Source: Candidatus Poseidoniaceae archaeon
GTDB taxonomy: Archaea; Thermoplasmatota; Poseidoniia; Poseidoniales; Poseidoniaceae
Direction: 5' to 3'
Assembly (NCBI GenBank): GCA_965662895.1
Contig: CBFIJH010000005.1
Span: 57,928 to 121,927, forward strand
DNA length: 64,000 bases
Shown: positions 29,410 to 47,997 of the stretch, piece after piece
Layout of the letters: each line of letters starts with the position of its first letter
Numbering within the stretch: the first letter of the stretch is position 1
Translations under genes and position numbers: made by a program
Notes under the pieces: model-generated
The model's input: only the letters and a program-made list of their open reading frames with translations
Databases searched by the model: none
What the model was told of the DNA's origin: nothing

Positions 29410-29471
29410 GATGACGCCTACATGCCTCCCAAGGGGAAGTCCTTTGAAGGTCTTCGGTCTGTTGCAACATC

Positions 29472-32400
29472 ATGGAAGAACGGCCAGTATGGAAAGGGCG
29501 ATTTTTGGCACTGTGTTTCACCGTGTTTTTTGCAACCCCCATACTTGCACCGTTTGCCTCTGCAGACGGTATGACAACCTGTGATGGCGTACCCGGTTTC
29601 AGTGATTGCGATGATTATGATTCAAACGATGATGGAACACCCTTTCAACAAGATTGGATTCGTGGAACGTACGATTTCGATTTGCAAGATACTTCAACAA
29701 TCCAAATGACATTGAGTTGGGCGGTGCGTGAATTCGATCGCAGCAAAGTCGGTCTCGATGATTCGACGACGAGTACTGCTCTCGCAAATGATGGATTGGA
29801 TGAGGATGATGGGATTCCAGCTGATATGATTCGAACCTACTTCGCCTACGAACCCAGCCCAGGAGCTGGTACCGTTGGTGACCAAATGTTGGACGACGTT
29901 CAAGATACAATCAGCGAACTCCTCTCGAGTGGATTCGGAACCGTTACAGCAATCAACACACAATACGATGGAATTTATTCCGAGGGAGGAAACACCGAGA
30001 TTTGTACGACCGATGCAAACGAAGACTCGGTCTACGATTCTGGCTCGGGCGTTACGGAGAACAACGTCTTCGACCCGCCCATTTGCTTCTCGACCATTGC
30101 CGAGATTCAGTTATCAACAAGCACATTCAATTTACTTGAAAATACGGACCTTGAACTTGAACGTGCGTATCAAGGCCTGCTTATTATGGGTTCAGAATTG
30201 ACAACGCAATTCAACGTCTTTGCAGAACCCGGTCACGTCTCAACCTTCTCGATTCATCCTCCGAATTATGCCACGGTCGTCGGTGTCGATGGAAACGGTT
30301 CCATCGTTCCTAATCCTTGTACAGTGGCGACCTGCGCAGGTCAGTGGACAGTGGAAAATCTGAACGCAGGTACAGATGCGTCTCGTGCCGAACAAACGGT
30401 CAGTTTGACCATGGGATATCGAAACACCTCGACAACGTCCATTGTCGAACTCGATCCGAACAAAGAGGCCGTATCGCTCCATCTCAAGGTGGATTTATTT
30501 GACGAACAAGAGGTTCAAATCGACTTCGTTGCAGGTATCAACTATCTTGATACGACAACAATGGACAATTGGGGCATTTCTCTCGTAGAATTATCCGAAT
30601 TAGCAACCATTCCTCAAATTACCTCCGATGGAATTCGTTTAGCGTATGAAAACGGAATCGCTCCTCTCGACGATTTCACCGATCAATTCCCAGTTGCATC
30701 GATTGGCGATGCGTTTTCAGCATCTATCCCAGGATCGCCTGACATTCAGATGGGACAATTATCATGGGTAAGTGATTCAGTCGCTGAGGGAATTGATGGG
30801 CCGGCTGGAGGATTGAATTACAGTCATTCCGTTGGCTGTTCTGAAACTGTGACACCACCGAACACAATCTCCTACTGTATCGAAGGACCCAGTGCTATGG
30901 GTTACGACCATCCAATCTATCTCCGTTCAACGAGCAACACGTTTGATCTTGGGTTGCTGGACCTCATTCAAGAGAATATACCGGATTCTGAATTCGAACT
31001 GGATGGTAAAACATACAACACGAAGGATTATTTTGAACTTATTACGAACGAAGACCTTCGAAGGCTGATGGATGCTGGTTTGTCGATTGAAACGGTCCTT
31101 GATACAGATTTCCTCGAAACCATGATTCCGTCTGATCTTCCACCGTCAAAAATTACACTTGAACTGATTCTACCGAGTTGGATTGTAACCGCCGATGGTT
31201 CTGACCGCATCATCCTTGAACACTCAGCATCAGGTGAAACCAGGAATGAAATCTCAATTGCAGGACCTTCTCCTTACACCTATAATCATCCAATCCTCAA
31301 TGAAGACGGTGAAACCATTTGTTTGCAAACGCAGAAGACCTGTGTTTCAACATCCCTATCCATTGATTTCGAGACCTTCGACATCAACGAATGGACGAAA
31401 TCTGTTTCCATTGAGTTTGGCCTTGAAGCCACTGCAGTTGTTCACCGAATCGCTGTTCCACAGGGGTATTACGACGTGAATGACACAACTGTCCGCATGG
31501 AGGTCATTCCAAGCGATTTAATCCGGTTGATTGGGGATATTATGAGTCGTGATGAGGAAAAAGCAATCTCCATCGAACGATGCCTTGAGTCAAACATAAA
31601 AAATTCCAATGCCTGTCCTGAGGAAAGTAGGCTTCAATTCAATCTTACATCCGATGGTTTGATGCAATTTGGAACCGATGCTGGAGAACTTCTCACACAC
31701 CAGATTCACACGCAGGTTGAAAAACTAGAAACGAGTGACGAAGGGCCTGAATTCTCGGAGGTTGACATCAGTGATTTTGTCATTGAAACGAGCCTTGCAG
31801 GACTTGGAAGTCCAGGACAAACCGTTTCTGATGAAGTGGGCCTAAGCGTGAGTCTCAAGATTCCAAAAGTTCGATTTACACTGGCTGTATCGAGCCCATG
31901 GGGCGATTTACTGAGTGGCGATCCTGACGCAATAACGCTCTCACTTCTTACCGAGGACATCAGTGGTGCTTTCCGTTCACCACTGCTTCAACCCATGGTC
32001 ATGATGGTCGATGAAATGTCGTCGATGATGACAGCAAGCCTTGTTTCATCAGAGGGAATTACATTCCCGCCGCTCGAGCAGGAAGCATTGATTGTTGAAA
32101 CAGGTTCTTGGGATACGACAATTCACGAAGATACGGAATTTGATTTGACTGGACCGGTCAGTTTCACGTTACCAAAAGGCATCATCGTCAAAGAGGGAAC
32201 ATCTACGCAAGGAAACATGATCATCACCGAAGATGATGAAGGGCGTCAAGTCATTACGTACACAATTCCGCCGGACGGTCTCGATGATGAAGTAACACTT
32301 CGGCTTCAAGTAACGTGGATGTATCTGCTTGGTCAATTTTGGGCTTATCCGGCTGTTGTTGTTATTCTGCTCATCCTTCTGATACGGCGTCGCCGCAAGA

Positions 32401-32579
32401 AGAAAAAGAAAAAGCGAGCTGCTAGAGAAGCAAAGAATTCACTGTACAAGGCCCAGAAGATGGGCTTATCGGAGTCCGACTTCGCTCAAATGGCTGGATC
32501 GGTTGACCGTCAAGTCGGAGGATACGATGAGGGAATCAATCCATTTGAAGCGATGCAACGTGAACCGCCTCAACCTTAG
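29472..32579 (+). CDS. Large secreted cell-surface protein (1035 aa) with a C-terminal TM anchor and polybasic tail
   Basis: Signal peptide ...FATPILAPFASADG. No recognisable repeat family. C-terminal helix YPAVVVILLILLI followed by RRRRKKKKKKR. Confidence 0.65.
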   Translation: MEERPVWKGRFLALCFTVFFATPILAPFASADGMTTCDGVPGFSDCDDYDSNDDGTPFQQDWIRGTYDFDLQDTSTIQMTLSWAVREFDRSKVGLDDSTTSTALANDGLDEDDGIPADMIRTYFAYEPSPGAGTVGDQMLDDVQDTISELLSSGFGTVTAINTQYDGIYSEGGNTEICTTDANEDSVYDSGSGVTENNVFDPPICFSTIAEIQLSTSTFNLLENTDLELERAYQGLLIMGSELTTQFNVFAEPGHVSTFSIHPPNYATVVGVDGNGSIVPNPCTVATCAGQWTVENLNAGTDASRAEQTVSLTMGYRNTSTTSIVELDPNKEAVSLHLKVDLFDEQEVQIDFVAGINYLDTTTMDNWGISLVELSELATIPQITSDGIRLAYENGIAPLDDFTDQFPVASIGDAFSASIPGSPDIQMGQLSWVSDSVAEGIDGPAGGLNYSHSVGCSETVTPPNTISYCIEGPSAMGYDHPIYLRSTSNTFDLGLLDLIQENIPDSEFELDGKTYNTKDYFELITNEDLRRLMDAGLSIETVLDTDFLETMIPSDLPPSKITLELILPSWIVTADGSDRIILEHSASGETRNEISIAGPSPYTYNHPILNEDGETICLQTQKTCVSTSLSIDFETFDINEWTKSVSIEFGLEATAVVHRIAVPQGYYDVNDTTVRMEVIPSDLIRLIGDIMSRDEEKAISIERCLESNIKNSNACPEESRLQFNLTSDGLMQFGTDAGELLTHQIHTQVEKLETSDEGPEFSEVDISDFVIETSLAGLGSPGQTVSDEVGLSVSLKIPKVRFTLAVSSPWGDLLSGDPDAITLSLLTEDISGAFRSPLLQPMVMMVDEMSSMMTASLVSSEGITFPPLEQEALIVETGSWDTTIHEDTEFDLTGPVSFTLPKGIIVKEGTSTQGNMIITEDDEGRQVITYTIPPDGLDDEVTLRLQVTWMYLLGQFWAYPAVVVILLILLIRRRRKKKKKKRAAREAKNSLYKAQKMGLSESDFAQMAGSVDRQVGGYDEGINPFEAMQREPPQP

Positions 32580-34303
32580 CGATGCAACGATTCGTGAATT
32601 CGCTCTGCGAGGGAAGGACCAATTCCAGGTACCGTTTTCAAATCCTCAATGCTGGCATTGTTGATTCCTTGGCGACCACCGAAATGGCGCAGGAGCGACT
32701 GCAGCTTCTTCGCACCCAAACCGAGAACGTTTTCGAGAGGGTCACCTAGTCGACTCTTTTTTCGACGTTTTCGATGGAAGGTGTTGACAAACCTGTGTGC
32801 TTCATCGCGAGCATGAACAAAGACTCGTCCACGACGGTCAAGGATAATCGGGTCTTTTTCTTCCTGATGCAGGGTTTCTTCTCGTTTTGCTAAAGCAGCC
32901 AACATAAATCGGTCTTGAACACCGTGCTCGTCCAACATCGAACGTATTGTACTCAAATGCGTTTCACCACCATCGAGCAAGAGTAAATCCGGCCATTCCT
33001 CTTGTCGTTTGAGCCACCGTTCTACGACTTCTCGCATCATTCGCAAATCATCCATCGCATCCCCCTTGACGATGTAGGTCCGATACTCCTTCTTTGCTGG
33101 ACGGCCGTTGCGGAGAACAACGCTTGCTCCAACTCGCTCATCACCTTGCAATTGTGCCATATCGAAGCAAACGACGTGATTCATTTGCTCAACATTGAGC
33201 AACATTGCAGCATCATCAGCAGCACGTTGTTCGAGCGATCCGCTTGATTTGTTGGCGAGTCGAGTTACCTGAATCTTTGCGTTCTGGTCGGCAAGAGTTC
33301 GGAGCGTGACCATCTCTCCACGCATAGGTGTTCGAACTTCGACGGTTGAACCTCTTCGTTCATCCAACCACTGCTGTATTCCATCGAGAAGTGGTGTCGG
33401 TGTCAACAACAAACGTGGAGGCCTTCGGTGGATGTAGTGCTCGCTAATGAATCGGCTTACGGTTTCACCAATGTCACCACGGTGAACAAATGGCCACACT
33501 TCCTGACCTTTGACGACACCTTCATCTGCGTGCAAGACGACAAGTGCAGCCAGATCTCCCTGTTCTGCAAATCCGATGGCATCACAATCACGATACAACT
33601 TGCTTGAAACGACGTGCTGGCCTATTGTCGTTCGAATCGATCGTATGAGATCACGGAAATATGCTGCCCGTTCGAACTGCATGTTCTGGGCGCAAGCATC
33701 CATTTTTTCACCAAGTTCTTCCAAGAATTCCGTCGCCTCACCATCAAGTATTTTTTTGACGGCTCGGACTTGTTCAGCATAACCTTCACCATTGATGCAT
33801 GGTCCTGTGCATAGGCCAATATGCATGGCCAAACAACCCTGTGGAAGCAGTTCCTTGCAATCCCGTATTCCGAAATGTCGACGCAACAATTGCATGACTT
33901 GTTTTGCAGCACCTGCGTTGGGGAATGGTCCCCATCGGTGTGCTTTTTTTGGCGGATGACGTGTGTACATAATCCGGGGAAATTCTTCGTTGGTTAGGAC
34001 AAGGTAGGGATAGGATTTGTCGTCCTTGAGCATTGAGTTGAACCGCGGTTTGTGTTCTCGGATGAGTTGACGTTCGAGAATGAGTGCTTCTTGCGGTGTT
34101 GTTGTAACAATGCACTCAACATCATCGGCCCGAGCAACGAGTTCTGGTATCATTTGACGGTCGGGATTTGTTGCAAAATACGACCGGATTCGTTCATTGA
34201 GCCTCGTTGCTTTACCAATGTAGAGGACACGCCCTTCCTCTGTTTTGAAAAGATACACGCCTGGAGAAGCAGGCAAATCGATGGATGAAGCATCAACCGC
34301 CAT
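32576..34303 (-). CDS. uvrC: Excinuclease ABC subunit C
   Basis: GIY-YIG PGVYLFKTEEGRVLYIGKATRLNERIRSYF, central UvrC region, C-terminal HhH VPGIGPSLAERI. Start trimmed to MAVDASSIDLP. Confidence 0.85.
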   Translation of the reverse strand: MAVDASSIDLPASPGVYLFKTEEGRVLYIGKATRLNERIRSYFATNPDRQMIPELVARADDVECIVTTTPQEALILERQLIREHKPRFNSMLKDDKSYPYLVLTNEEFPRIMYTRHPPKKAHRWGPFPNAGAAKQVMQLLRRHFGIRDCKELLPQGCLAMHIGLCTGPCINGEGYAEQVRAVKKILDGEATEFLEELGEKMDACAQNMQFERAAYFRDLIRSIRTTIGQHVVSSKLYRDCDAIGFAEQGDLAALVVLHADEGVVKGQEVWPFVHRGDIGETVSRFISEHYIHRRPPRLLLTPTPLLDGIQQWLDERRGSTVEVRTPMRGEMVTLRTLADQNAKIQVTRLANKSSGSLEQRAADDAAMLLNVEQMNHVVCFDMAQLQGDERVGASVVLRNGRPAKKEYRTYIVKGDAMDDLRMMREVVERWLKRQEEWPDLLLLDGGETHLSTIRSMLDEHGVQDRFMLAALAKREETLHQEEKDPIILDRRGRVFVHARDEAHRFVNTFHRKRRKKSRLGDPLENVLGLGAKKLQSLLRHFGGRQGINNASIEDLKTVPGIGPSLAERIHESLHR

Positions 34304-34407
34304 ATCGAATCCTTGCATCCATAGGTCAAAAAAACCTGCATGAATTCTGTCAATCAACAGAAGGACAACATCAAATGCGATGTTGCCAAGGTAGGGTATG
34401 AGTTCCG

Positions 34408-36591
34408 ATGCTGACACCAGCCATGTTGCGGATTTTGCGTTGGTTGGATGACCACCCAACCACGCTCGAATCGGCTTGGGACGTCCCACGAACCATCTCA
34501 TTGGAAGGCATCGCCGACGGAATTGGTGTTGTTCGTTCTGCCCTTTTTCAGCCAATGAGCGTACTGGAAGATAACGAATTCCTAAAAACCAGACAAGCCC
34601 ATGTACTTGGATCAGGGCGCAGAAAACGGAAAGTTGTCCACATTACTGAAAAGGGACGCCAACAACTTCGAGAACAGGTGGAAAACCTCCCCGAGCGACG
34701 TTCAAGAGAATCGTTGAAGTTGAAAGGACAGATTCCTGAATGTACGAATTTGCACGGGCGTCAGTCTGAACTGGAATTGATGAAAAAATCCCTGGAGCAG
34801 AAAAGACCGATTCATCTACGAGGGATGCCGGGAATTGGCAAATCGACGCTCGCTCGTACCATGGTTCAGGAATTGGCTGAACGAGGAACAGAAATCCACT
34901 GGGCGGTTCTCGACGCCTACTGCGACGTGCATGAGGCGATGCAACGAATGGAGGTCGATTCACCAAGAATTCTTGAGGTTGAACATTATGCTAACATATT
35001 CGAAACCGAGAACGTTGTTCTGGTGTTTGATGATGTGCATACCATTTCTTCAAGACACAAATCATCCTTCCTCAGCTTCTTTCAAACACTCCTGAACAAC
35101 AACATCGCCTTCATGTTGATTGGAAGAGATCGAGAAACATTCTCAATCGAAGCAACCGTTGTTGATTTGGGACCGTTGGACCAATCCGATGCAATTGAAT
35201 TACTGGACCCTGAACTCGGCGAGAACAGAGCGTCAATTGTTGAAACATTGGGTGGTCACCCGCTTGCGATTTTGCTCTACAATGTCTCGACTCCACTTCC
35301 AGAGACGGATCAAGACGTTCGAGCCTACGTTGAACAGGTTGTGCTTGAACATGCCTCAACAGAGGTCCATGATGCAATGCAACCCTTCCTTGTCTTGCCA
35401 TTTCCAATCCCTGCAATGCGGATGCCCGAACCTGACCACGTTCCATTGCTCGATGAACACACGCTGTTGCGTTGGGGCGCACAGAATTCGGCAATGGAGA
35501 TGCAACATCTCATTCGCAACGTTTGTCGTTCTTCTCTTGAAGAATCTGATATTGATGCTCTCCATCAGTCTGCTATTTCACACTGGGAGAACGACGACGA
35601 CGCACTTGCGAAGATTCTTGAATTGCATCATCGGATTCAGAGAGGTGAAACGAATGTTTCAGTGCATTTGTCGCAACGCGCAAATGAATTGATGAATGCC
35701 CATTCGGGTGCTTTCGCAACTCTTTTGGATGAAGCTTTGGTCAATGAAAATGTGAACCTCGAATTGATTGAACTTGCCGCACAACATGCATTAAATCGGG
35801 CTGAACTTAACACTGCTAAAGAATACATCAAGGAGTTTGATGACCCTCGACTCGCCAACATCCGATTTCAGATTGCCCAGTATGAGGGAAAGAACGACGT
35901 CGTTCAACACTTGGAATCTTTGACCGATGGAATCGATGATCCGAATCAAAAATTACGTGTTCAACTTTCTGTTCTCTCTCGCAGCATTGATGACCTTACA
36001 CCACAGGCGACCGAGGATGACCATCGCCGCATCCATGGACTGCTCGAACGCGTCGATCTTCCTGACAAAGAAGGCGAACGCCAACGCATTTTGACCACAA
36101 TTGTCGTCATGCGACATGCGCTTGCCCTTGAACAGAGAGATTTCAATGCTGCAAATTTTCTTCTCGATCAATTGAAGAATATTGCGTTAACAGACGATCC
36201 TCTTCTTCACTATCTTTCAACAAAAACGGAACTGAAAATGTTGGAAAAAGGCTCTGCAGATGCTGCATTTACCTTGAAGAATGCAGAGCGTATCGCAACA
36301 CAGTTGAAACATCCGCTGTACAACGTTTCACTTTTCTTACTGCTTTGCGAACATCTTGTTGAAACGCAACCCCAGCGTGCTCAACTTCTCCATGAACAAA
36401 TCGATATCCAGGCCATTGAAACAATGACCGCACCATCAGCACGTCGAATCGTTGCGAAATGGTGGGAGGTGAAGTCGATGGTTGACGAGAAAGGTCGAAT
36501 TCTTGCACTGCGGGAAGCCATTCTTCGTTATCGTTCAGTAGGATGCCCAAACCGTGCTCGAAGGTTATCCAAGCGCTTGCACAGCCTGTGA
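34408..36591 (+). CDS. wHTH-STAND-type P-loop NTPase regulator (N-terminal winged helix, AAA_16-like ATPase, C-terminal helical/TPR-like)
   Basis: N-terminal ~100-aa wHTH, Walker A LRGMPGIGKSTLART, Walker B VVLVFDDVH, then ~400 aa of helical repeats. Divergent from uvrC. Confidence 0.65.
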   Translation: MLTPAMLRILRWLDDHPTTLESAWDVPRTISLEGIADGIGVVRSALFQPMSVLEDNEFLKTRQAHVLGSGRRKRKVVHITEKGRQQLREQVENLPERRSRESLKLKGQIPECTNLHGRQSELELMKKSLEQKRPIHLRGMPGIGKSTLARTMVQELAERGTEIHWAVLDAYCDVHEAMQRMEVDSPRILEVEHYANIFETENVVLVFDDVHTISSRHKSSFLSFFQTLLNNNIAFMLIGRDRETFSIEATVVDLGPLDQSDAIELLDPELGENRASIVETLGGHPLAILLYNVSTPLPETDQDVRAYVEQVVLEHASTEVHDAMQPFLVLPFPIPAMRMPEPDHVPLLDEHTLLRWGAQNSAMEMQHLIRNVCRSSLEESDIDALHQSAISHWENDDDALAKILELHHRIQRGETNVSVHLSQRANELMNAHSGAFATLLDEALVNENVNLELIELAAQHALNRAELNTAKEYIKEFDDPRLANIRFQIAQYEGKNDVVQHLESLTDGIDDPNQKLRVQLSVLSRSIDDLTPQATEDDHRRIHGLLERVDLPDKEGERQRILTTIVVMRHALALEQRDFNAANFLLDQLKNIALTDDPLLHYLSTKTELKMLEKGSADAAFTLKNAERIATQLKHPLYNVSLFLLLCEHLVETQPQRAQLLHEQIDIQAIETMTAPSARRIVAKWWEVKSMVDEKGRILALREAILRYRSVGCPNRARRLSKRLHSL

Positions 36592-36592
36592 A

Positions 36593-36826
36593 TTACAATT
36601 CAGCACCAATCATGGTTTTGGTTTCTTGAATACCACTGATCGGACGAATTTCTTCGACAATGCAGCGTGTTAGCGTGAACTCGTCGTCGGCTTGTACTCG
36701 TGCGAGCAAATCGAATTCTCCAAACAGCATCCATTTGTCTGTGACATGCTCGATTCCATCAAGGGCATCTCGCACGTCTTTTTCTTGTCCCGGGGAGGTG
36801 GTTATCAAAACGAATCCTATCGGCAT
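36593..36826 (-). CDS. Stand-alone Lrp/AsnC C-terminal (RAM) domain protein
   Basis: 77 aa. VLITTSPGQEKDVRDAL...GEFDLLARVQADD...ISGIQETKTMIGAEL fits RAM-domain ligand-binding topology with no HTH. Confidence 0.7.
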   Translation of the reverse strand: MPIGFVLITTSPGQEKDVRDALDGIEHVTDKWMLFGEFDLLARVQADDEFTLTRCIVEEIRPISGIQETKTMIGAEL

Positions 36827-36835
36827 CTTTTCACC

Positions 36836-37069
36836 TCAGTATTCCACCGCAATTAGCGTTCGCGTGTCCCGAATTCCTTCAATGGTTCTGAACTCTTTCA
36901 TGAGCAGTGCGGTGAGATTTTTTGCTGTGTTGCTGCTCACATGAGCGAGAAGATCGTACTCTCCATACAAGGCGTGGACTTCTTTGACATCAGCATGGGA
37001 GGTTATAGCGAGATAGACATCACGCTCATGGGACGGTTCGGTCTTGACAAGGATGAATGCTTCTGGCAC
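36836..37069 (-). CDS. Stand-alone Lrp/AsnC C-terminal (RAM) domain protein, tandem paralog
   Basis: 77 aa. ILVKTEPSHERDVYLAI...GEYDLLAHVSSNT...IEGIRDTRTLIAVEY. Confidence 0.7.
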   Translation of the reverse strand: MPEAFILVKTEPSHERDVYLAITSHADVKEVHALYGEYDLLAHVSSNTAKNLTALLMKEFRTIEGIRDTRTLIAVEY

Positions 37070-37167
37070 AATGTCCGCTTGAGCAGAAGGGTCTTATCGC
37101 TTTGGTTTCGTTTTTCGGTGAACATGCAAAGGGTGCTTTCAAATGGTATCGCTTTGGATTATACAAT

Positions 37168-40100
37168 ATGGAGAGGCAAAAGCGGTTCTTTGCCCTTGGT
37201 TTGTTGCTGCTTCTCCTGATGATGTCCATGGCGCCCATGGTTCAATCCTTTCACGATTCGCAGGGGAAGCCAACTGCGGTTTCAGGACGCGCTACGACCA
37301 CATGGTCCGGTACGGTGACATTGACGAGCGATTATTTTGTGAACGTTCAAGATGAACTGCTGATTACGTCGTGCACAAGTGTTGTTCTGTCTCCAGGGAT
37401 CCGAATTTACATCGATGGACGTTTGACCGTTCAGGGAACTCCTACGTGTCCGATTGTTCTGTCAAGTTCTTCGTCCACAGGCGATCATGAAGGAATACAA
37501 TTCAATTCCTCGTCGTTTGGTCGTGGTAGTACAGTGAACCACCTTCACATTGAGGATGCGATTTATGGGATTACCATGTATGGCTCAAATCCGATTTTGA
37601 ACAATGTGACCATCTTCAATCCGGACCGTGTTGGCATCGATATGTTTGGAAGCTCAAGCCCAGTCATTCGAGACTTGCATGTGGAACAGGCTGGTCGCTC
37701 CGTTGGGTTCCAGAATGATTGGCGTTACGGCATTGGATTGTCCGTTGGCGACGGATCAACACCGATTGTTCAAGGAGCATATTTCACCGACCACCAATTG
37801 CGAGGTCTCAACTTGTGGGGCGCATCTGGAGGTATTTATCGGGACATTGTCATGGACAACATATCGGGCTCCGTTCTTGGAGAGGTGGCGGGAGTATGGG
37901 TCGAAGACAGCGTTCCACTGTTCGAAAATTTAACCATCGATAAAAGCGACACGGGCATCATCGTTCGACACATTGACGATTCGGGGTATACGCGTGGTGT
38001 TTTTAGGGACGTCGACATATCGAACAGTATGTTTCGTGGCGTTTATTTGGACAAAAACAACCACACGAATTACACCAATTACGAAACAGCAGATTTCACC
38101 AATCTTACGGTCAGAGGAACTGGTTCATCTGGGGCAACGTCCCCCGGAATTGCGCTTGCAGCTATCGACATTAACGCAACAGGCGCATGGCTTGAGAATG
38201 TCCTTGTAGATGACGCATCGTCTGTCGGCATCCGAATGTTCTTTGTTGATTCAACGACCACACTCCGAAATGTGACCATACGTGACGCTGGTGAAGTTGG
38301 ACAAGGTGCACATTCAGCGGGATTAAGCATCCAAACCTCTTACTTTGCTGCACATGTTGAAGATCTTGAAATCAGTGGCTCCCCCGGGCCAGGTGTTCAT
38401 TCGTCCAGTGGTGGCTCTCTTCAGGGGTCCGACTGGAATCTTCACAACAACTCAGAACATGGCTTGTTCATCGATTCTGCAACTGTTGTTGTTGACGGAA
38501 TCTCGACGATGAAAAATGGATATTCGGGCGTTCATGTGTTTGACTCGCGTTATGTGAGCATTTCAAATCTAACCTCTGTCAACGATGGTGATCTTGGTTC
38601 GGACGCTATGGAACAAGCGGGTCTTTCGTACCAAAAATCCAACGATTTAGAAACAAACTCAGGAGATGTTGTTTGTAGGAATTGTCACGTTGAATCCTCG
38701 CAAGGCCATGGTGTCTACGTTCGTGATTCCGTTGACCTTTGGCTGCACAACCTTTCGATATCGGACATCGACCCAACACTTCCAGCAATGTACGTCGATA
38801 ACGGAGGCTTGACGCTTGGCACACAAGGTGGACGCATCAATCTCTTCAATTCACAGATCGAGCATGAATCAACAACGCAACATGCCTTGTACATTCAACA
38901 AGCAGCGGGTCATATCGATGGACTATCATTGATTGGAAATCACAGTGGAATCTATTGGGATGCAAACCATAACGGGAATTTCCCATCGACATTAAGCAAT
39001 ACTGAATTTGTAGGCAGTGAATGTCTCAAACTTGTGAATCATCCCGACCTTGGAGGTTATGGAAATACGATCGGTTCGGATTGTGAAGGACGGATATGGG
39101 TCGAAAATTCCGATGTGAATTTCTCCAATTTGGTTGATGTAAGTGGTACACACATTTTGGACCTTGATGCAGCATCAACCATGCATTTGCATCAACCCAG
39201 TAACATTGATCTCACGATTGCAAACATTCCATCAGGCGCATCCATCGACGTTGCTTGGGATGTTACCGTGTGGGTTGTAAACAATCTCTCCAACGGCATT
39301 CCAAATGCCTATGCCAACGTGAGTTTCACACAATTTGAACCATCTGTGTCGGAGTTTACCAACGATATTGGTGTTGTACAATTGATCGATTTCATTGGAC
39401 AACGTTGGACGAATTCTGGTGCATCGGCCATGAATGATGTTGCTGTTGAATGCGGTTATGATAGCGAGAGCAACACTACGACGGTAAGTTTGGATGGTGA
39501 CAAAGTGATGTATTGTGTTCTCGAATTGGACAACCAACCCCCATTTTTGAACTGGACTTCACCGATGGACGGGGATGTGTTCCCTTCACAGGGACAGGTT
39601 TTGTTTGATGCTCAAGAGTCCTGGGATTTGGACGACGATCCTCTCACACTCACGTGGACTTCCTCCCTTGATGGCGTCATCTCATCAACACAAAGCACGG
39701 CCCCGTTTACGGTCAACGATGGCGTATCTGGGATTACGCTTAGTGATGGTATTCATGATATAACGCTGGACGTTTGTGACAATGCTGGACATTGTGTATC
39801 AGAAACACGTACAATCGAATTAACGAATCTCGCTCCGGAACTCAACGTGTCCTTTGAACCGGGCCTGACCCAGTGGAATGAACTCATTATGCCTCAAACG
39901 GGAACGGTCACCATCAATACGACAGGGACATTTGACCCTGAAGGTGATGATTTTGCTTGTACAATTTCCTTTGGAGGGTACAACCGACAAGGTACTGGAT
40001 GGGGCAATCAATATGTCTGTCCAGAGTTGTTGACGTACACCTTTGATCATTATTCGGACGACCCACCAGCATCGTTCTTCTTGAACGTCGTTGCATTTGA

Positions 40101-41877
40101 TGAAGTAGGGAATTCAGATACCTACACCGTTGAAGTCAAGTTGTACAATGAGATGCCAACCGCTGCTTTCACGCTCGAACGTAATGGAACAGCGAGTGAG
40201 GATGTGATTTTCTTCAATGGAAGCAGTTCAGCAGACCCAGAAAACAATCCAATTTCGTTTGAATGGTGGTCCAATGTGGATGGAACGCTCATGGTTGGTC
40301 AAGGTATTGAGAACATTTCTTGGTACGGACATCTCTCTCGTGGTGTTCATCAAATTGAGTTGCGAATCACCGACGATCGTATGGATCATGGAGGTCAAAT
40401 GTCGGTTGTCTCTCAATTGATTACCGTCGACAATTCTGCACCACGAGCTGTCATTGAAGAATTGGCTCTGTTCGATGACCTTGACTCGTCCGTTTTGATT
40501 CCGTTCAGTGCAAATGGTAGTGGCGATTTCGATTCAGGATGTTTTACATTCCCAAGTGAGGGGACCTGGCACTGTGCAGAGAACGAGCCTGCAGCTGGCT
40601 CCGAATTCCTGCAAATCGATTGGTCGAGCGACATCGATGGACGATTGACACCAGAAGATGAGGATTGGTTGACCTTTGAAACGCGTCTCTCCGCAGGCAC
40701 GCACCAGATTACACTCACGCTCAGCGATGGCATCAATCCCAACGTTTCCGTTTCGACAACACTTGAGGTTGCTGAATCAGCCCCTGTCTTGGTGTTGGAT
40801 TCTCCGGTAAATGGTAGCCAATTCGCCTCGAGTGATTTGATTGTTATCGATGCACGAAACAGCGTTGATTACGATGAGGATGACTTTACACTCACCTTGC
40901 GAAGTTACGAGGATTCATCTTCGACGTATCTCCCCATTCTGTCCGGTGTTTCAACATCGGTTGTTCATGAAATTCAACTCGATGCTGGATTAAGAGATTT
41001 GCAAATCGAATTACTGGATGCGACTGGAAAATCTCGCGTTGAATCGCTCGAACTACTCATTCTCCCCAGCGACCCAGAGGCCGTGATTGTATCGCCTGCT
41101 AATCTTGAATCGTTCGATCCAGGAGTAACCATCGTCTTCGAAGGTTCCTCCAGTGATGCTGATCAAGATCTCATTGTTCGAGAATGGCGATTGCACCAAC
41201 CAGGAGTCCAAACAAGCATTCTGAGTACCCAGTCAACATTCTCCCAGGTCTTTGTTCCCGGTTCGCATCATGTTTCGTTGTACGTTCAAGATGCCCGTGG
41301 AGCTTCCTCGGAGCAGCACATCAACTTCACAGTGCGATCAAGCCTTCCTGAATTGGTTCAGACCAGTTTGGAACTGTCACAGACCGAGTTCATCTCAGAC
41401 GAGCAAGTTACACTCGATGTAGCGGTCCAGCTGATTGATGCGGATGGAACAACCAACGATGTGCGCGCCGATATCGTCCACAACATTCAGACGTGGACAT
41501 TCAATCTCAGCGATGATGATGGCGATGGAATTTGGACTGGCTCGATTGAATTCCAGCCTTCGGGTGCAGGACAACCAAGTTTCAAGGTCATTGCAACCGA
41601 TGGAGAAGGCGATTCTGCCAGTGTTGATGTTCTTTACACGCCGCTGAAAGTTGTTGACGCCGAGGGTGAAGGATTTATGTCAACGGGTGTCCTTCTCGGT
41701 GCAGTTTCGATTGTTGTTCTCGTGGCCCTGCTTATCACGCTCCAGCGTCGAAGGCAAGCAGCAGAGGAAATGAAAATCATTGATTCATGGGGCGTCTTTG
41801 GTGATGGAGCAGTCGAGGATGATGCATCTGAACAAGAAGTGAATGAGGACGAAAAGTTGGATTGGGAGAACGTCTGA
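37168..41877 (+). CDS. Giant type-I surface protein: parallel beta-helix (PbH1) domain plus ~6 PKD/Ig-like domains and a C-terminal TM anchor
   Basis: Start at MERQKRFFALGLLLLLLMMSMAPMVQS (signal peptide). PbH1-like repeats NPILNNVTIFNPDRVGIDMFGSS, GIGLSVGDGSTPIVQGAYF. PKD-like modules marked by LTWTSSLDGV, FEWWSNVDGT, IDWSSDIDGR. TM helix GVLLGAVSIVVLVALLI followed by an acidic tail. Confidence 0.75.
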   Translation: MERQKRFFALGLLLLLLMMSMAPMVQSFHDSQGKPTAVSGRATTTWSGTVTLTSDYFVNVQDELLITSCTSVVLSPGIRIYIDGRLTVQGTPTCPIVLSSSSSTGDHEGIQFNSSSFGRGSTVNHLHIEDAIYGITMYGSNPILNNVTIFNPDRVGIDMFGSSSPVIRDLHVEQAGRSVGFQNDWRYGIGLSVGDGSTPIVQGAYFTDHQLRGLNLWGASGGIYRDIVMDNISGSVLGEVAGVWVEDSVPLFENLTIDKSDTGIIVRHIDDSGYTRGVFRDVDISNSMFRGVYLDKNNHTNYTNYETADFTNLTVRGTGSSGATSPGIALAAIDINATGAWLENVLVDDASSVGIRMFFVDSTTTLRNVTIRDAGEVGQGAHSAGLSIQTSYFAAHVEDLEISGSPGPGVHSSSGGSLQGSDWNLHNNSEHGLFIDSATVVVDGISTMKNGYSGVHVFDSRYVSISNLTSVNDGDLGSDAMEQAGLSYQKSNDLETNSGDVVCRNCHVESSQGHGVYVRDSVDLWLHNLSISDIDPTLPAMYVDNGGLTLGTQGGRINLFNSQIEHESTTQHALYIQQAAGHIDGLSLIGNHSGIYWDANHNGNFPSTLSNTEFVGSECLKLVNHPDLGGYGNTIGSDCEGRIWVENSDVNFSNLVDVSGTHILDLDAASTMHLHQPSNIDLTIANIPSGASIDVAWDVTVWVVNNLSNGIPNAYANVSFTQFEPSVSEFTNDIGVVQLIDFIGQRWTNSGASAMNDVAVECGYDSESNTTTVSLDGDKVMYCVLELDNQPPFLNWTSPMDGDVFPSQGQVLFDAQESWDLDDDPLTLTWTSSLDGVISSTQSTAPFTVNDGVSGITLSDGIHDITLDVCDNAGHCVSETRTIELTNLAPELNVSFEPGLTQWNELIMPQTGTVTINTTGTFDPEGDDFACTISFGGYNRQGTGWGNQYVCPELLTYTFDHYSDDPPASFFLNVVAFDEVGNSDTYTVEVKLYNEMPTAAFTLERNGTASEDVIFFNGSSSADPENNPISFEWWSNVDGTLMVGQGIENISWYGHLSRGVHQIELRITDDRMDHGGQMSVVSQLITVDNSAPRAVIEELALFDDLDSSVLIPFSANGSGDFDSGCFTFPSEGTWHCAENEPAAGSEFLQIDWSSDIDGRLTPEDEDWLTFETRLSAGTHQITLTLSDGINPNVSVSTTLEVAESAPVLVLDSPVNGSQFASSDLIVIDARNSVDYDEDDFTLTLRSYEDSSSTYLPILSGVSTSVVHEIQLDAGLRDLQIELLDATGKSRVESLELLILPSDPEAVIVSPANLESFDPGVTIVFEGSSSDADQDLIVREWRLHQPGVQTSILSTQSTFSQVFVPGSHHVSLYVQDARGASSEQHINFTVRSSLPELVQTSLELSQTEFISDEQVTLDVAVQLIDADGTTNDVRADIVHNIQTWTFNLSDDDGDGIWTGSIEFQPSGAGQPSFKVIATDGEGDSASVDVLYTPLKVVDAEGEGFMSTGVLLGAVSIVVLVALLITLQRRRQAAEEMKIIDSWGVFGDGAVEDDASEQEVNEDEKLDWENV

Positions 41878-41900
41878 GGCCACTTTATTTTGTAGGCCAT

Positions 41901-41916
41901 AGTATAATATATAACA
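41901..41916 (+). promoter_or_regulatory. TATA-like element (tagtataatatataac) about -25 from the ATG at 41934
   Basis: AT-rich box in the 56-bp gap between two large genes, with the right spacing for a leaderless archaeal promoter. Confidence 0.35.
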
Positions 41917-41933
41917 GAACTCCAGTGCGACGC

Positions 41934-44195
41934 ATGAGAAAAGCACTCACGCTCATCCTCGTTGGACTAATGATAGGAACAACCTTGCCAGCAAGCGTTG
42001 CAGCCGAAGAGACAGAACCGATTGCATTTGGTATTGAATACAACTATTCGAATCTTAACACAGATATTGCTTCGATGATTGGTGTCGATCTTCAGGAAGT
42101 CTTCCAGGAAGTGATGGCTGCTGGTGATGATGTGGGAATCGATTTGCTCATTGGTAGTGTAACATCCGGTTCGACAACCATCGTTTTTGAACAGTATGAC
42201 GGCCCGATGAAGACGCTTACAGTCGATGGAACGCAGACAGACTTTTCCACAAAAGTAACCGAACTTACCGTGCGTCACGGACTCCTTGATGACTTTGCAG
42301 TTCACTCGGAGTGGAGCGATTCCTACGGAGGAATCGACCTGACAATTGGTTATGATTCCGAGCAACTCTTCAATGCAGATGTCGTCTACACAGAGTACTT
42401 TGATTCTGAAATGGGTCTTCATGGAATGGATATGGAGATGGACGTTGAAGCGGAAATTGAATACGCCTTTGGAATAAACGGAGAACTCTCTGGCGATGGC
42501 GAAACCATGCCGTTCGACATCGAACTCAAACTTGGTACATCTTTTGAAATCAACAACGGTTTGCTCGAAGTCCGCATGGATGAAGCATCTCCTTTGTACA
42601 CAGAGATGGTAAACCTGCAACCGGGTCAAACATTGACGTGGAATTGTGGAACAGACGAAAGATATGTTGAATCCGAATTCGACGATGTTGATGTTGGGGA
42701 TTTATGCTCTGAGCGCAACATCCACTACGAGACAGAGACATCAGTTCTCCTCGAATTGACCGGAATTCCAACGGAAGAATTTGGTCTTCCGGAAGGAGAT
42801 TTTGATTTTACTGTTTCAGACACTGTTACCGACATGTATGATGGTGATGTTGAACTTTTCTTCATGGGTGGAGGAATGGAATTGCTTGATGAACCTACAC
42901 AAATGATTACCATTGACGATGGAAGCATGATCGAAGTTCACCAAGCCTATGCTTCACCTACTCCACTTGCGTTCCCTGCAATGTGGGCAATGATGTGGGC
43001 AAACTCTGTTGTTGGTAGCGGAGATTATCCTGGTATTGTCGATGCGTTGTTGGGCAATGAGGACATTGACGACGCATTTGGCGGATGGTTTGATGAGATG
43101 CTTGAATCTGCAGAAGAAGATGATGATGACTACTTCGTCTGTGCGAACCTCAATGAAATTCCTCGTCAATATGTCGAAGATGGATTCGATGATTGCGGCG
43201 ACAACTCAGATGAAGAATTCGTGTGCGATGATGGAGGTGTTATCCCCGGAGGCTGGGTCAATGATGGATGGGAGGATTGTTCAAATGGTGAGGATGAAAC
43301 CAATGTTCAACAAGAATTTGTATATGTTAATGTTTTCATGAACGGAGCAAGCGAATCAGAAATGAACTTCGATTACGAAGTGCAGGGCATGGAATATGAT
43401 GAGAATTACGAGATTTCTTGGACAGTCACGGATGATGAAGGAACCACATCCGATGCAGGTTCCGCTGCTATTACAGACGGTTCCTACAGTGCATACGAAA
43501 GTGCTAATGCAGAAATCAATGGGTTTGGTGAATACTGCGTTGATATTGTCGTTACTCAAATGAGCGATGATGAAATTGTTGGAACACAGCAGGAATGTGA
43601 ATCGGTCTCGCAGGATATCGAGCCGAGCGATCGTTTGATGACCATTGCTGAGGCACTCGCAGAATCGACCCTAGACAACACACTCGAGTCATTCGGTCAG
43701 AATCTTGAGAACCGTTTGTCGAACTTTGAGGACGATTTCGATGTCGCTTACGAAGATGGTATGGCTTATGCGCTGTATGATGCTAACGACGATCGCTTTG
43801 TTGGTTTCCAGCTGGTCGCATCACCTGGTGGGACACAGTGGTACACGCTCATTGGACCTGAGAGTTCTGCGTACGGTACGCCACAACGCGGCCTGAGCAT
43901 CACATACTTCACTGGAGTCGATGCAACACAAGAAGCGGCCGAGATTGAGGACCAAACGGATTTGTCAGACCTTGTTGATGTGACACAGCACAACACCGAT
44001 GAGGTTGAGGCAGTCAACACGGGTGTCGACCCTGCTACACTCCCTGACAACACAAACGATGACGTTGATAATACGAGTGAAGCAACAGAAGATGATGTAT
44101 CGGATCTCCTTCCGTTCCTCTCGCCGATTACAACTCTTGCAATGATTGCGCTTGCAGGAATGTTTGTATCAATCCGTTACAAGGATGAAGAATGA
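41934..44195 (+). CDS. Large acidic type-I surface protein with two LDL-receptor-class-A-like Ca-cage modules
   Basis: Signal peptide MRKALTLILVGLMIGTTLPASVAA. FVCANLNEIPRQYVEDGFDDCGDNSDEE and FVCDDGGVIPGGWVNDGWEDCSNGEDE match the D-G-x-x-D-C-x-D-x-S-D-E end of LDLa. C-terminal helix TTLAMIALAGMFVSI. Confidence 0.65.
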   Translation: MRKALTLILVGLMIGTTLPASVAAEETEPIAFGIEYNYSNLNTDIASMIGVDLQEVFQEVMAAGDDVGIDLLIGSVTSGSTTIVFEQYDGPMKTLTVDGTQTDFSTKVTELTVRHGLLDDFAVHSEWSDSYGGIDLTIGYDSEQLFNADVVYTEYFDSEMGLHGMDMEMDVEAEIEYAFGINGELSGDGETMPFDIELKLGTSFEINNGLLEVRMDEASPLYTEMVNLQPGQTLTWNCGTDERYVESEFDDVDVGDLCSERNIHYETETSVLLELTGIPTEEFGLPEGDFDFTVSDTVTDMYDGDVELFFMGGGMELLDEPTQMITIDDGSMIEVHQAYASPTPLAFPAMWAMMWANSVVGSGDYPGIVDALLGNEDIDDAFGGWFDEMLESAEEDDDDYFVCANLNEIPRQYVEDGFDDCGDNSDEEFVCDDGGVIPGGWVNDGWEDCSNGEDETNVQQEFVYVNVFMNGASESEMNFDYEVQGMEYDENYEISWTVTDDEGTTSDAGSAAITDGSYSAYESANAEINGFGEYCVDIVVTQMSDDEIVGTQQECESVSQDIEPSDRLMTIAEALAESTLDNTLESFGQNLENRLSNFEDDFDVAYEDGMAYALYDANDDRFVGFQLVASPGGTQWYTLIGPESSAYGTPQRGLSITYFTGVDATQEAAEIEDQTDLSDLVDVTQHNTDEVEAVNTGVDPATLPDNTNDDVDNTSEATEDDVSDLLPFLSPITTLAMIALAGMFVSIRYKDEE

Positions 44196-45130
44196 GCGAA
44201 GGCGAAGGGTTTCAACCCGTTGCTAGATGGCGAATTGTCGCCAGTCTTCTTCTGATCGCTCAACTTGTGGTTTTACTCGCTTTCAAATCGGCCCTCGAGG
44301 AAGAATCCTGGTTTGTTGGAAGCGTCCAAGCAACGGTCGAAGAAGGGCCACTGCAACTTGAGGGCGTATCCGTCAACTTGTCCATCGATATGCAGAATGA
44401 GCAAGACGACCTTAGCATCGAGTTTTTTGGTCCACTTCGATTGAGTCATTGGCAAAATGAACGCGATGACCGTGCAGCACTATCCGAACAAGAAGCTGAA
44501 GCGTATGATGAAAATCTGAACGAAACGTTTGACGCTCCATCACCAGATTCAATCAAATCAACAACGTTCGCACTCATCCATGTTGGAATCGGATTTTCGG
44601 TTTTTTTGATGATGGTTCTTTGCTTCGATTTAAGGAAACAAGCAAGTCAGTCATGGATTACATATTCTCGTCGCTTCGTTTCGTTTGTATCCTTTGTGAA
44701 TACATTGGCGATTCTGCTGCTCATTCTTCTGGTTCTACCTGGCGGTTGGTTAGCATCGGTTGCAGGGAATCCTCAACAATTTAGCAACAGTGATGAAAAT
44801 GATGCATTTCTTGCCCATGCTGATTTCTCGCAAGAATTCAGCATTGGGCTGGATGGTTTTTCCTTGGAATTTGAAGCGAGTGGATACGATATCGGTATGG
44901 TTCGTCCTGCAAATCGAAGTGCAGTTGAAGCCCAACCCCCACTTCCTGATACGCCTGATGCAGAATCCTTCATCTTGATTTCAGGTGAAATGCGTGCTGA
45001 TACGCCTTCTTATGTTACTGAAATGATGTATTACTGTTTCATTTTATGGGTAGTTTTACCGCTTGCTCTCCTCATTCAACAACGAACAGCAATCGATGCA
45101 CGACTTGCACCGATCAATTTGAATGGTTGA
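44192..45130 (+). CDS. Hypothetical membrane protein co-transcribed with the preceding surface protein
   Basis: ATGA overlap at 44192-44195. N-terminal helix, an acidic ectodomain-like stretch, and 3 further helices. Confidence 0.55.
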   Translation: MSEGEGFQPVARWRIVASLLLIAQLVVLLAFKSALEEESWFVGSVQATVEEGPLQLEGVSVNLSIDMQNEQDDLSIEFFGPLRLSHWQNERDDRAALSEQEAEAYDENLNETFDAPSPDSIKSTTFALIHVGIGFSVFLMMVLCFDLRKQASQSWITYSRRFVSFVSFVNTLAILLLILLVLPGGWLASVAGNPQQFSNSDENDAFLAHADFSQEFSIGLDGFSLEFEASGYDIGMVRPANRSAVEAQPPLPDTPDAESFILISGEMRADTPSYVTEMMYYCFILWVVLPLALLIQQRTAIDARLAPINLNG

Positions 45131-45901
45131 TCACTGTTCTGGTAACGTACCGTTCAAACTGTCAGGATTGTCCTCAAGTGGACCCCATTCTGTCTTGGTT
45201 CGATGGAGGCCAAATCGCTTTGCATAGAGGAATCTAAGGTTCTTCCAGCCATCACCCCACGTGTGGATTTCAGCATCTCCAACGCGTTCTCGGTATGGGA
45301 CGGAAATTTCGATGGCTTTCTTACGACCAAGATGCTTGCGTGCAAGGATCTTGATCTCTTCTGAAAGTGGCATTCCATCGTTGGTTGGGCGCATCTTTGG
45401 ATTCTCAAAAATCGACTTGCGGAACACCCACATCCCCGATTGCGAATCCTTAATTCCATAACCGAAGAGGAGTCGAGCATTGAATGAGAGAGCCCAATTT
45501 CCAAATCCGTGGAGACCAGACATGGATCCGTCTTCTGCCATGCTCAGGCGATCACACGTGATGAAATCGAGGTCATCATCCAAAAGTCGCTTGACCAATT
45601 CAGGAATCAATTCTGCAGGATAGGTACAGTCTGCATCCATTGTGACAATGATGTCGTTCGATGCAACAACGAAACCCGTACGGTATGCCCGGCCGTAACC
45701 CTTCCGTGGTTCAAGGTGAACGCGAACATCTTTTTCAAGGGCGATTTCTCGAGTACGATCGGTCGATGAACCATCGACAATCATGATTTCGAGGGATTCG
45801 CACCATCCGCGCGGAATTGCATCAACGGTCGCACCAAGTGCTTCCTCTTCATTTCGAGTGGGAAGAAGAACCGTCACAGATACTGGTAGTACCTCGTCCA
45901 T
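45131..45901 (-). CDS. GT2-family glycosyltransferase (dolichyl-phosphate hexose synthase-like) with a C-terminal membrane helix
   Basis: VLLPTRNEEEAL, MIVDGSSTDRT, MDADCTYPAE (DxD). Start at MDEVLPVSV. Confidence 0.75.
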   Translation of the reverse strand: MDEVLPVSVTVLLPTRNEEEALGATVDAIPRGWCESLEIMIVDGSSTDRTREIALEKDVRVHLEPRKGYGRAYRTGFVVASNDIIVTMDADCTYPAELIPELVKRLLDDDLDFITCDRLSMAEDGSMSGLHGFGNWALSFNARLLFGYGIKDSQSGMWVFRKSIFENPKMRPTNDGMPLSEEIKILARKHLGRKKAIEISVPYRERVGDAEIHTWGDGWKNLRFLYAKRFGLHRTKTEWGPLEDNPDSLNGTLPEQ

Positions 45902-45954
45902 GTTGTGACGATAGGCAATGAGCGTTTCAATGCATTGCCTCAACGGTCAAACGA

Positions 45955-46947: not shown

Positions 46948-46969
46948 TTTTTCACCTCAATTCTATTGT

Positions 46970-47988: not shown

Positions 47989-47997
47989 GTTGCTCCC

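Follow-up and report, generated by a model that had tools for sequence, protein, structure and literature searches.

A conserved pair of stand-alone RAM proteins encoded beside a giant surface protein and a predicted STAND transcription factor in the Poseidoniales

This work concerns a region of about 16 kb (positions 29472-45130) in a 64,000-nucleotide stretch of contig CBFIJH010000005.1 of a Candidatus Poseidoniaceae archaeon (assembly GCA_965662895.1), the whole of which is called the window below. Within it, two adjacent genes for small proteins consisting only of a RAM domain, RAM1 and RAM2, lie back to back with the gene for a giant beta-helix/PKD surface protein and end to end with a gene for a predicted winged helix-turn-helix (wHTH) STAND NTPase. 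Comparison of gene order across the Poseidoniales, an abundant and uncultured order of marine archaea (marine group II), shows that the giant gene, the divergent RAM1/RAM2 operon and the convergent STAND gene make up an evolutionarily fixed core. The synteny is strong support for selection having kept the RAM pair and the giant gene linked, although it cannot by itself demonstrate regulation, and the linkage of the three provides a concrete hypothesis on what stand-alone RAM proteins control.

The physiological role of stand-alone RAM proteins was described as unclear in a 2010 review of archaeal Lrp regulators, which reports no genomic target association for them (PMC2995911). One such protein, DM1, binds Ile, Val, Leu, Met, Arg and Phe with changes in its assembly state. 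In vitro it also assembles with FL11, a full-length regulator, into a hetero-octamer; no other partner of a stand-alone RAM protein had been demonstrated (PMC2995911). The parts of the trio considered here all belong to known families, and their association is undescribed as far as literature searches show; searches of the literature for a marine group II S-layer, giant surface protein or RAM association located nothing specific.

Organization and conservation of the core

The core genes are arranged as follows, with the evidence for each assignment in brackets:

34408-36591, plus strand: wHTH-STAND NTPase gene, 727 aa (motifs, fold model)
36593-36826, minus strand: RAM2, 77 aa (PF01037, E 6.2e-12)
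36836-37069, minus strand: RAM1, 77 aa, GTG start (PF01037, E 3.9e-13)
37168-41877, plus strand: giant beta-helix/PKD gene, 1569 aa (Pfam Beta_helix, PKD, PKD_4, Big_9)

Gene boundaries in the region are identical in public gene calls of identical sequences, and families were assigned by Pfam and NCBIfam scans of the window translations. An earlier note on this DNA had named eight genes in the region and a 98-bp stretch shared by RAM1 and the giant gene; the open reading frame (ORF) map, the translations and the family scans bear out all eight as described, and the intergenic region measures exactly 98 bp (37070-37167).

Gene order was followed by tblastn with the window proteins in 182 loci that carry a RAM1 orthologue. 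These were drawn from contigs with RAM1 homologues of 61-90% identity, 80 species-level genomes or metagenome-assembled genomes, 80 metagenome contigs seeded from one divergent RAM1 sequence, four more assemblies of a rearranged clade and one still deeper clade; each denominator given here is the number of loci informative for that adjacency. RAM1 is followed in tandem by RAM2 at every informative locus (180/180), across a gap of 9-13 nt, and a full-length orthologue of the giant gene adjoins the pair in all 170 loci, divergently in 165 and in tandem in five. The STAND gene is convergent with RAM2 within 400 nt in 144 of 153 loci; five more have a TerB-domain gene inserted, which brings the total within 1 kb to 149/153, and the four loci from which it is absent all belong to the rearranged clade. 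Beyond the core the order is looser, with uvrC directly adjoining the STAND gene in 109/132 loci. The group of uvrC, a gene for a 1035-aa protein and Trm5 is missing from the locus in one lineage (L013-15) and displaced by inserted genes in others (L016-18, L057, L064, L071, L091-93 and L148). Breaks and insertions gather at the junction of STAND and uvrC and beyond the 3' end of the giant gene, and none falls between RAM and giant genes.

Synteny in related metagenome-assembled genomes, which the earlier note had proposed as a check, therefore strongly bears out the association of the RAM pair with the giant gene, and it extends to the most divergent loci. In the deepest clade, where RAM1, RAM2 and the giant protein are 44%, 51% and 33% identical to their counterparts in the window, the giant gene is divergent from the RAM pair and a STAND-like C terminus is encoded convergently downstream. 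In the rearranged clade (L069, L099-L102; L069:211-15280) the genes for two FG-GAP-repeat giants of 1500-1850 aa are followed by RAM1, RAM2 and the giant orthologue, all on one strand, with no STAND gene or uvrC nearby and with an LDLa-like gene and a gene for a 288-294-aa protein convergent on the opposite strand. Given the order RAM1-RAM2-giant in this clade, rebuilding of the locus left the RAM pair immediately 5' of the giant gene. Misassembly was considered for the L069 arrangement and is ruled out by four further independent assemblies that agree with it, five in total.

Rates of change differ within the core, the STAND protein diverging fast (about 30% identity between clades) and the giant protein falling to 35-50%, in contrast to the slowly evolving RAM pair (61-92% in the loci from the genome collection). 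The earlier note had also read the 16 kb as one surface-protein super-locus, a view that the comparison does not sustain. uvrC, Trm5 and the 1035-aa gene are separate units that are displaced or lost in some lineages, and two genes downstream of the giant gene, for an LDLa protein and a 312-aa membrane protein, are lineage-restricted. A separate TATA-like box precedes every gene or gene pair, so that the 16 kb is made up of individual transcription units in a row.

As to the TerB-domain gene, in a divergent deep-water clade (L107:10534-11166; L104, L108-L110) it stands between RAM2 and the convergent STAND gene, on the strand of RAM2, and encodes a protein of 210 aa whose tail is very acidic.

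The RAM proteins

Their domain content indicates that RAM1 and RAM2 are stand-alone RAM proteins of the DM1 type and not full-length Lrp/AsnC (FFRP) factors. Both contain a RAM domain only, matching PF01037 with 45.7 and 49.5 bits (cut-off 25) over residues 6-73 and 6-75 of 77, and no helix-turn-helix (HTH) model in Pfam or NCBIfam matches either protein, the RAM domain filling the whole 77 aa. Because they have no DNA-binding domain, such RAM-only proteins cannot read an operator themselves. The two are paralogues with 39% identity, and both align end to end (residues 1-75) with DM1 (2e1a, 2cvi) and STS042 (2zbc); the sequence matches of RAM1 in the PDB are DM1, STS042 and TTHA0845 (2djw). 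Residues G36, E37, D39, T69 and T71 are invariant in 17 RAM1/RAM2 sequences and align with the YGEYD and T-x-T motifs of DM1, positions that, as in FFRP structures, would contact the ligand. The view of the earlier note that the RAM proteins are metabolite sensors is favoured by the alignment of these conserved positions with amino-acid-binding DM1 (PMC2995911), an amino acid or related metabolite being the putative ligand.

RAM1 and RAM2 share their length (75-83 aa) and RAM-only build with the demi-FFRPs DM1 from Pyrococcus horikoshii (2E1A, 2Z4P, 2CVI), STS042 from Sulfolobus tokodaii (2ZBC), TTHA0845 from Thermus thermophilus (2DJW) and TvDM from Thermoplasma volcanium. The demi-FFRP structures match the RAM1/RAM2 family profile with E values of 1e-17 to 7e-19, with YGEYD and T-x-T in common. 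Unlike the demi-FFRPs, RAM1 and RAM2 are two paralogues fixed in a tandem operon, beside one giant surface gene and a STAND gene. Across the 80 species-level genomes their identity is 61-92% for RAM1 and 68-87% for RAM2; deeper metagenomic clades bring the minimum down to 44% and 50%, respectively, and RAM1 orthologues as a whole span 44-100%. Beyond the orthologous group, the closest RAM-only homologue is 41% identical and is encoded by a single gene amid transporter and metabolic genes. For another distant RAM homologue, P0279, the available context is a contig of 508 bp. Fused double-RAM proteins of 166-177 aa occur in other organisms (P0250, P0253, P0258, P0260) and give a Rosetta-stone hint that two RAM domains may work as a unit.

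The STAND protein

The model and motifs of the 727-aa protein identify it as a wHTH-STAND NTPase with a helical-repeat (TPR-like) sensor, a predicted transcription factor similar to PH0952 and MalT. It carries a Walker A motif, GMPGIGKST (139-147), and a Walker B motif, VLVFDD (204-209), of which G139, P141, G142, I143, G144, K145 and D208 are invariant in 23 orthologues. The AF2 model has a pLDDT of 86.6 and a pTM of 0.84, and the top Foldseek match to it in the PDB is PH0952 (6mfv_A, E 6.7e-11 over 669 columns), followed by Apaf-1, MalT (8bob, E 1.7e-6), CED-4 and NLRs. A search of the PDB by sequence returned no significant match, the likeness being found by the fold search. All Pfam scores are sub-threshold (AAA_16 31.1 against 32.6, nSTAND3 25.0 against 27.2, NB-ARC 22.1 against 23.5), and the protein is thus, by modelled fold and motifs, a STAND protein that lies outside every curated STAND family. 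Residues 1-90 are modelled as three helices and a beta-hairpin wing, with R43, S44, R62, H65, R72 and R74 invariant; HTH_34 and PadR match this protein with E values of 0.001-0.004, below the cut-off.

PH0952 of P. horikoshii and MalT of Escherichia coli share with the 727-aa protein the fold of the NOD (P-loop NBD-HD-WHD), the arm and the helical-repeat sensor, and its modelled N terminus resembles the N-terminal wHTH effector of PH0952 (PMC6468293). Sequence identity to PH0952 and MalT is only 13-16%, however, and while the DNA-binding domain of MalT is C-terminal, the predicted wHTH of the 727-aa protein is N-terminal. STAND proteins of the MalT type are modulated or sequestered by partner proteins (PMC10427625). 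Homologues of the 727-aa protein are full-length and apparently confined to the Poseidoniales.

The region between the divergent uvrC and STAND genes (34304-34407) contains the element ACATCAAATGCGATGT, in which two inverted arms of 5 nt flank AAATGC. It precedes the ATG of the STAND gene by about 36 nt, and its core, TCAAATG, is similar to the giant-gene box.

The giant surface protein

The giant protein consists of a signal peptide, a right-handed beta-helix at residues ~40-790, PKD/Ig-like modules, a C-terminal transmembrane (TM) segment and a 40-aa cytoplasmic tail, with TM-like segments at residues 6-29 and 1500-1529 and a pI of 4.1. Pfam recognizes Beta_helix (2e-18), PKD, PKD_4 and Big_9. 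The earlier note had counted six PKD domains, and this count is supported in part: two PKD-type domains and one Big_9 domain are found by Pfam, and a profile made from the first PKD unit adds three related units with E<0.01, besides two that score more weakly. The protein accordingly appears to carry four to six or more PKD/Ig-like modules. Its 28 N-x-S/T sequons correspond to a density of 1.8 per 100 aa, whereas the cytoplasmic enzymes and regulators of the locus have about 0.3-0.4 per 100 aa.

In its signal peptide, beta-helix and Ig-like modules, C-terminal anchor, acidic pI, high sequon density and nearby glycosyltransferase genes the protein is like archaeal envelope glycoproteins and surface proteins that combine beta-helix (PbH1/CASH) and PKD domains. 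S-layer glycoproteins are abundant and form lattices; S-layer family models gave no match to the giant protein in the Pfam and NCBIfam scans. The label of adhesin, used in the earlier note, is unproven, the protein fitting a principal envelope (S-layer-like) glycoprotein equally. We prefer to leave adhesin, S-layer-like envelope glycoprotein and polysaccharide-binding or -processing protein side by side as candidates.

Promoters and the 98-bp shared region

TATA-like boxes lie about 25-28 nt upstream of the start codons of the 1035-aa gene, uvrC, the RAM operon, the giant gene, the LDLa gene and unrelated genes of the window, and about 36 nt upstream of the start of the STAND gene. Of 31 window genes, 8 have a [CT]TTNA[AT] box centred at -31 to -24; control windows of equal size gave 0-3. 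This geometry is as expected for leaderless archaeal mRNAs, and the transcription units are apparently mostly of the leaderless type. Four elements are distinguished in the region shared by RAM1 and the giant gene:

37092-37099, minus strand: TATA-like box of the RAM operon (TCTTATCG on the plus strand), 24-25 nt from the RAM1 start
37137-37143, plus strand: TATA-like box of the giant gene, TTTCAAA, centre 28 nt from the ATG
37095-37105, plus strand: direct repeat TATCGCTTTGG, copy 1, overlapping the TATA box and B recognition element (BRE) of the RAM operon
37147-37157, plus strand: direct repeat TATCGCTTTGG, copy 2, between the TATA-like box and the ATG of the giant gene

Among 83 unique orthologous sequences the spacing from RAM1 to the giant gene is 97-122 nt, with a TTA box 24-25 nt from the RAM1 start in 80 and a TT[CG]A[AT] box centred 27-28 nt from the giant ATG, likewise in 80. 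Boxes of this type also precede other genes of the window, and these family-wide motifs are therefore core promoter elements and not operators. A specific operator common to the family can be ruled out, the two conserved blocks at fixed offsets from the start codons being the generic box type. The palindromic operator for which the earlier note had proposed a search in the 98 bp does not appear, as 37070-37167 holds no palindrome above chance: none has perfect 5-nt arms, and two have 6-nt arms with one mismatch against 2.9 expected.

The 11-nt repeat TATCGCTTTGG has two exact copies in the 64 kb, both within the 98 bp and 52 bp apart, and is found nowhere else in the window, including upstream of the STAND gene, except for one match with a single mismatch at 49859, which is at chance level. 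In the genus-level group to which the window belongs, the two copies hardly vary among 32 unique sequences although the spacer between them does, and in other clades similarity between the two positions is weak or absent. From its position, between box and start codon, copy 2 would occupy the classic place of a repressor site.

A possible metabolite-sensing module

We tentatively favour a reading in which the RAM sensor pair acts through a DNA-binding partner, most plausibly the STAND protein, on the two back-to-back promoters, a reading whose chances we place somewhat short of even. RAM1 and RAM2 would form a hetero-oligomer that binds an amino acid or related metabolite at the RAM-RAM interfaces, by analogy with DM1. 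As this complex has no DNA-binding domain of its own it would need a partner that does, most likely the adjacent STAND factor or, alternatively, a full-length Lrp protein encoded elsewhere, and through it would modulate the promoters of the RAM operon and the giant gene. In the genus of the window the candidate operator would be the direct repeat TATCGCTTYGG, with one copy over the TATA box and BRE of the RAM operon and the other between the TATA box and ATG of the giant gene, at a spacing of 52 bp that would correspond to about five helical turns. The fixed linkage, the rearranged clade, the fixed promoter offsets, the genus-level repeat and the fused double-RAM proteins are consistent with such a mechanism. 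The metabolite-sensing control of the giant gene put forward in the earlier note is in part sustained, by the linkage of RAM and giant genes and the conserved RAM positions; the part that made this control direct fails, since the RAM proteins have no HTH.

Several observations weigh against this reading. The stretch from the giant gene to Trm5 is syntenic as a whole in most lineages, and because of this and of the compact genome, general conservation of gene order explains part of the signal. There is neither a family-wide operator nor a palindrome, and the repeat is confined to the genus-level group of the window. Although the two copies covary (permutation p 0.00045), this value is driven by related clades and lacks phylogenetic independence, and copy 2 could alternatively be a promoter-proximal element or a duplicate of the RAM promoter. 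Conservation of the RAM proteins is at the level of housekeeping proteins, and the STAND and giant proteins diverge quickly, which would also suit a global rather than a local role for the RAM pair. Nor does the STAND gene have to adjoin the pair, as the rearranged clade demonstrates.

The full form of the proposal, a three-part module in which a heteromeric RAM1/RAM2 complex and the STAND protein set the expression of the main giant envelope glycoprotein according to amino-acid or metabolite supply, is unlikely as a whole. If true, it would give stand-alone RAM proteins their first defined physiological target and would link the composition of the cell surface to the sensing of nutrients in the planktonic archaea that are most abundant in the surface ocean. 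The surface of marine group II would then adjust to the nutrient state, which bears on particle attachment, virus susceptibility and the use of organic matter. If false, the block would still be a useful synteny marker for the Poseidoniales, together with a set of apparently leaderless promoters with a box about 27 nt from the start.

The strongest alternative, which we judge unlikely though still a serious contender, is that synteny is conserved without local regulation. The RAM pair would be a general co-regulator that joins a full-length Lrp/FFRP protein encoded elsewhere, as DM1 joins FL11, and in a compact genome with back-to-back promoters and abutting or overlapping gene ends, breakpoints would be deleterious. 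The order giant, RAM1, RAM2, STAND, uvrC, 1035-aa gene, Trm5 is indeed kept even in a deep clade in which the giant protein is 35% and the 1035-aa protein 28% identical, and very little DNA separates the genes (98 bp at one junction, a gap of 1 nt at another and an overlap of 4 nt at a third). Furthermore, the RAM proteins evolve as slowly as UvrC and a GT2 glycosyltransferase encoded near the giant gene, the intergenic motifs common to the family are generic promoter boxes, and the sole demonstrated partner of a stand-alone RAM protein is a full-length FFRP (PMC2995911). However, breaks have occurred repeatedly at other junctions, between STAND and uvrC and 3' of the giant gene, and never between RAM and giant genes, and in the one clade with a rebuilt locus the RAM pair still immediately precedes the giant gene, now in a different orientation. 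Nor does the 64-kb window, as distinct from whole genomes, contain a gene for a full-length Lrp protein; no further RAM gene besides RAM1 and RAM2 is found in it either.

A post-translational coupling appears improbable. Here the tail of the giant protein, or the machinery for its glycosylation or export, would be bound by the RAM complex or by the STAND protein through its TPR sensor, so that metabolite status would act on surface-protein assembly, by analogy with PII and AmtB or with the sequestration of MalT by MalK. The cytoplasmic tail (residues 1530-1569, window 41758-41877) carries the motif I(D/E)SW(G/D)xFG after the membrane anchor in 19/19 clade representatives, and many tails end in LDWDNV; the motif may serve as a docking site for a cytoplasmic partner. 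The GT2 gene near the 3' end of the giant gene, the 28 sequons and the precedent of MalT, which partner proteins sequester (PMC10427625), also favour this coupling. RAM domains, however, are known mainly from transcription regulators. The tail is also conserved no better than the ectodomain; exceptional conservation was considered for it and is ruled out by a mean column identity of 0.57, against 0.60-0.65 in the ectodomain.

Many Lrp/AsnC regulators are encoded divergently from their targets, and this layout, together with the conserved ligand-site positions, is what favours the literal model in which the RAM-only proteins themselves regulate through a palindromic operator in the 98 bp, a very improbable model that is already contradicted by the predicted RAM domain content, as proteins of 77 aa leave no room for an HTH and 37070-37167 has no above-chance palindrome. 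The comparison with asnC-asnA and with LysM-lysWXJK of Sulfolobus solfataricus is nevertheless instructive for the RAM-giant pair. As there, a gene for a RAM-domain protein is divergent here from a putative target, with a short shared promoter region and joint conservation, and as in a regulator-target divergon the pair at the RAM locus is conserved while its flanks vary (165/170 divergent, 5/170 tandem). RAM1 and RAM2 differ from AsnC and LysM in lacking an HTH domain, and whereas the targets of those regulators belong to amino-acid metabolism, the putative target here is a giant envelope protein with no palindromic Lrp-type box; a specific operator conserved family-wide, the other mark of a divergon, is missing from the shared region.

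Neighbouring genes

The remaining genes of the region are, with their supporting evidence:

29472-32579, plus strand: gene for the 1035-aa protein (ORF and translation)
32576-34303, minus strand: uvrC (TIGR00194, Pfam domains)
41934-44195, plus strand: LDLa gene, 753 aa (Ldl_recept_a, E 2.3e-8, two stretches)
44192-45130, plus strand: gene for the 312-aa membrane protein (four TM-like segments)
45131-45943, minus strand: GT2 glycosyltransferase gene (PF00535, E 6e-25)

All three large proteins of the region are acidic (pI about 4.1), with a signal-like segment at the N terminus and a TM segment at the C terminus. The 1035-aa protein (pI 4.1) has TM-like segments at residues 10-32 and 949-974, with a poly-K run after the second, and matches no Pfam or NCBIfam family; its sequence features are those of an acidic, type-I membrane-anchored surface protein, and it is a frequent neighbour outside the core module. 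Its orthologues are 27-90% identical, and their genes are convergent with uvrC in most related loci, as in the window, where the 3' end of uvrC overlaps the 1035-aa gene by 4 nt (32576-32579). The 62-bp region between the divergent Trm5/TYW2 and 1035-aa genes (29410-29471) contains one palindromic box, CCTTTGAAGG, at about 29441-29450. Its centre lies ~26 nt from the ATG of the 1035-aa gene and ~36 nt from that of Trm5, and it may be a single shared bidirectional promoter element.

UvrC matches TIGR00194 with 443.9 bits (cut-off 285.45) and has the GIY-YIG, UVR, two RNase H-like and HhH domains all present. Its gene is likely to start with the ATG at 34303 (575 aa), in preference to the long TTG ORF, because a T-rich box lies ~28 nt upstream of this ATG. 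The earlier note had drawn attention to uvrC standing alone, and no uvrA or uvrB is indeed found in scans of the ten genes that flank the locus and of ten further ORFs, among the largest left in the window. These twenty include AOR, glycosyltransferases, carotenoid genes and several without a Pfam family. The uvrA, uvrB and uvrC genes are unlinked in E. coli, so that a lone uvrC is ordinary, and the gene is a housekeeping neighbour outside the core.

The LDLa protein of 753 aa is very acidic and has two LDLa stretches, and its gene has its own TATA box, TAATATATAA, ~25 nt upstream. The start of the 312-aa gene overlaps the LDLa stop codon (an ATGA overlap), from which it is judged to be translationally coupled to the LDLa gene, and the two co-occur across related loci. 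By tblastn both are detected only in the clade of the window and weakly in a few others (the L069 clade, L085, L113, L119, L157, L166 and L167). The GT2 protein is 66-96% identical in related loci. Its gene is usually near the 3' end of the giant gene, sometimes together with a GT4 gene; in most loci of sufficient length it is detected within ~9 kb of the RAM pair, on the side where the giant gene lies.

Glycosyltransferases, Trm5/TYW2, a cyclophilin, a phytoene synthase, a desaturase and an ABC1 kinase are encoded in the flanks, a gene content that fits the placement of the window in the Poseidoniaceae/Poseidoniales (marine group II) by the names that its RAM homologues bear. Rfam and tRNA scans of the window gave no match. 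Just past the locus (45955-49605) lie genes for a phytoene synthase (45955-46947) and an amine-oxidase-type desaturase (47998-49605), which probably serve carotenoid or retinal synthesis for proteorhodopsin phototrophy; a 151-aa ORF between them (46970-47425) may be ABA4-like, by synteny with L001. Two large ORFs, at 11281-14004 (907 aa) and 57853-60399 (848 aa), match no Pfam family at E<=1e-5 and may encode further lineage-specific large proteins. Finally, a 490-aa protein encoded at 51784-53256 has an N-terminal TrmB-type HTH (E 2.7e-8) followed by a long C-terminal part, and is a candidate regulator.

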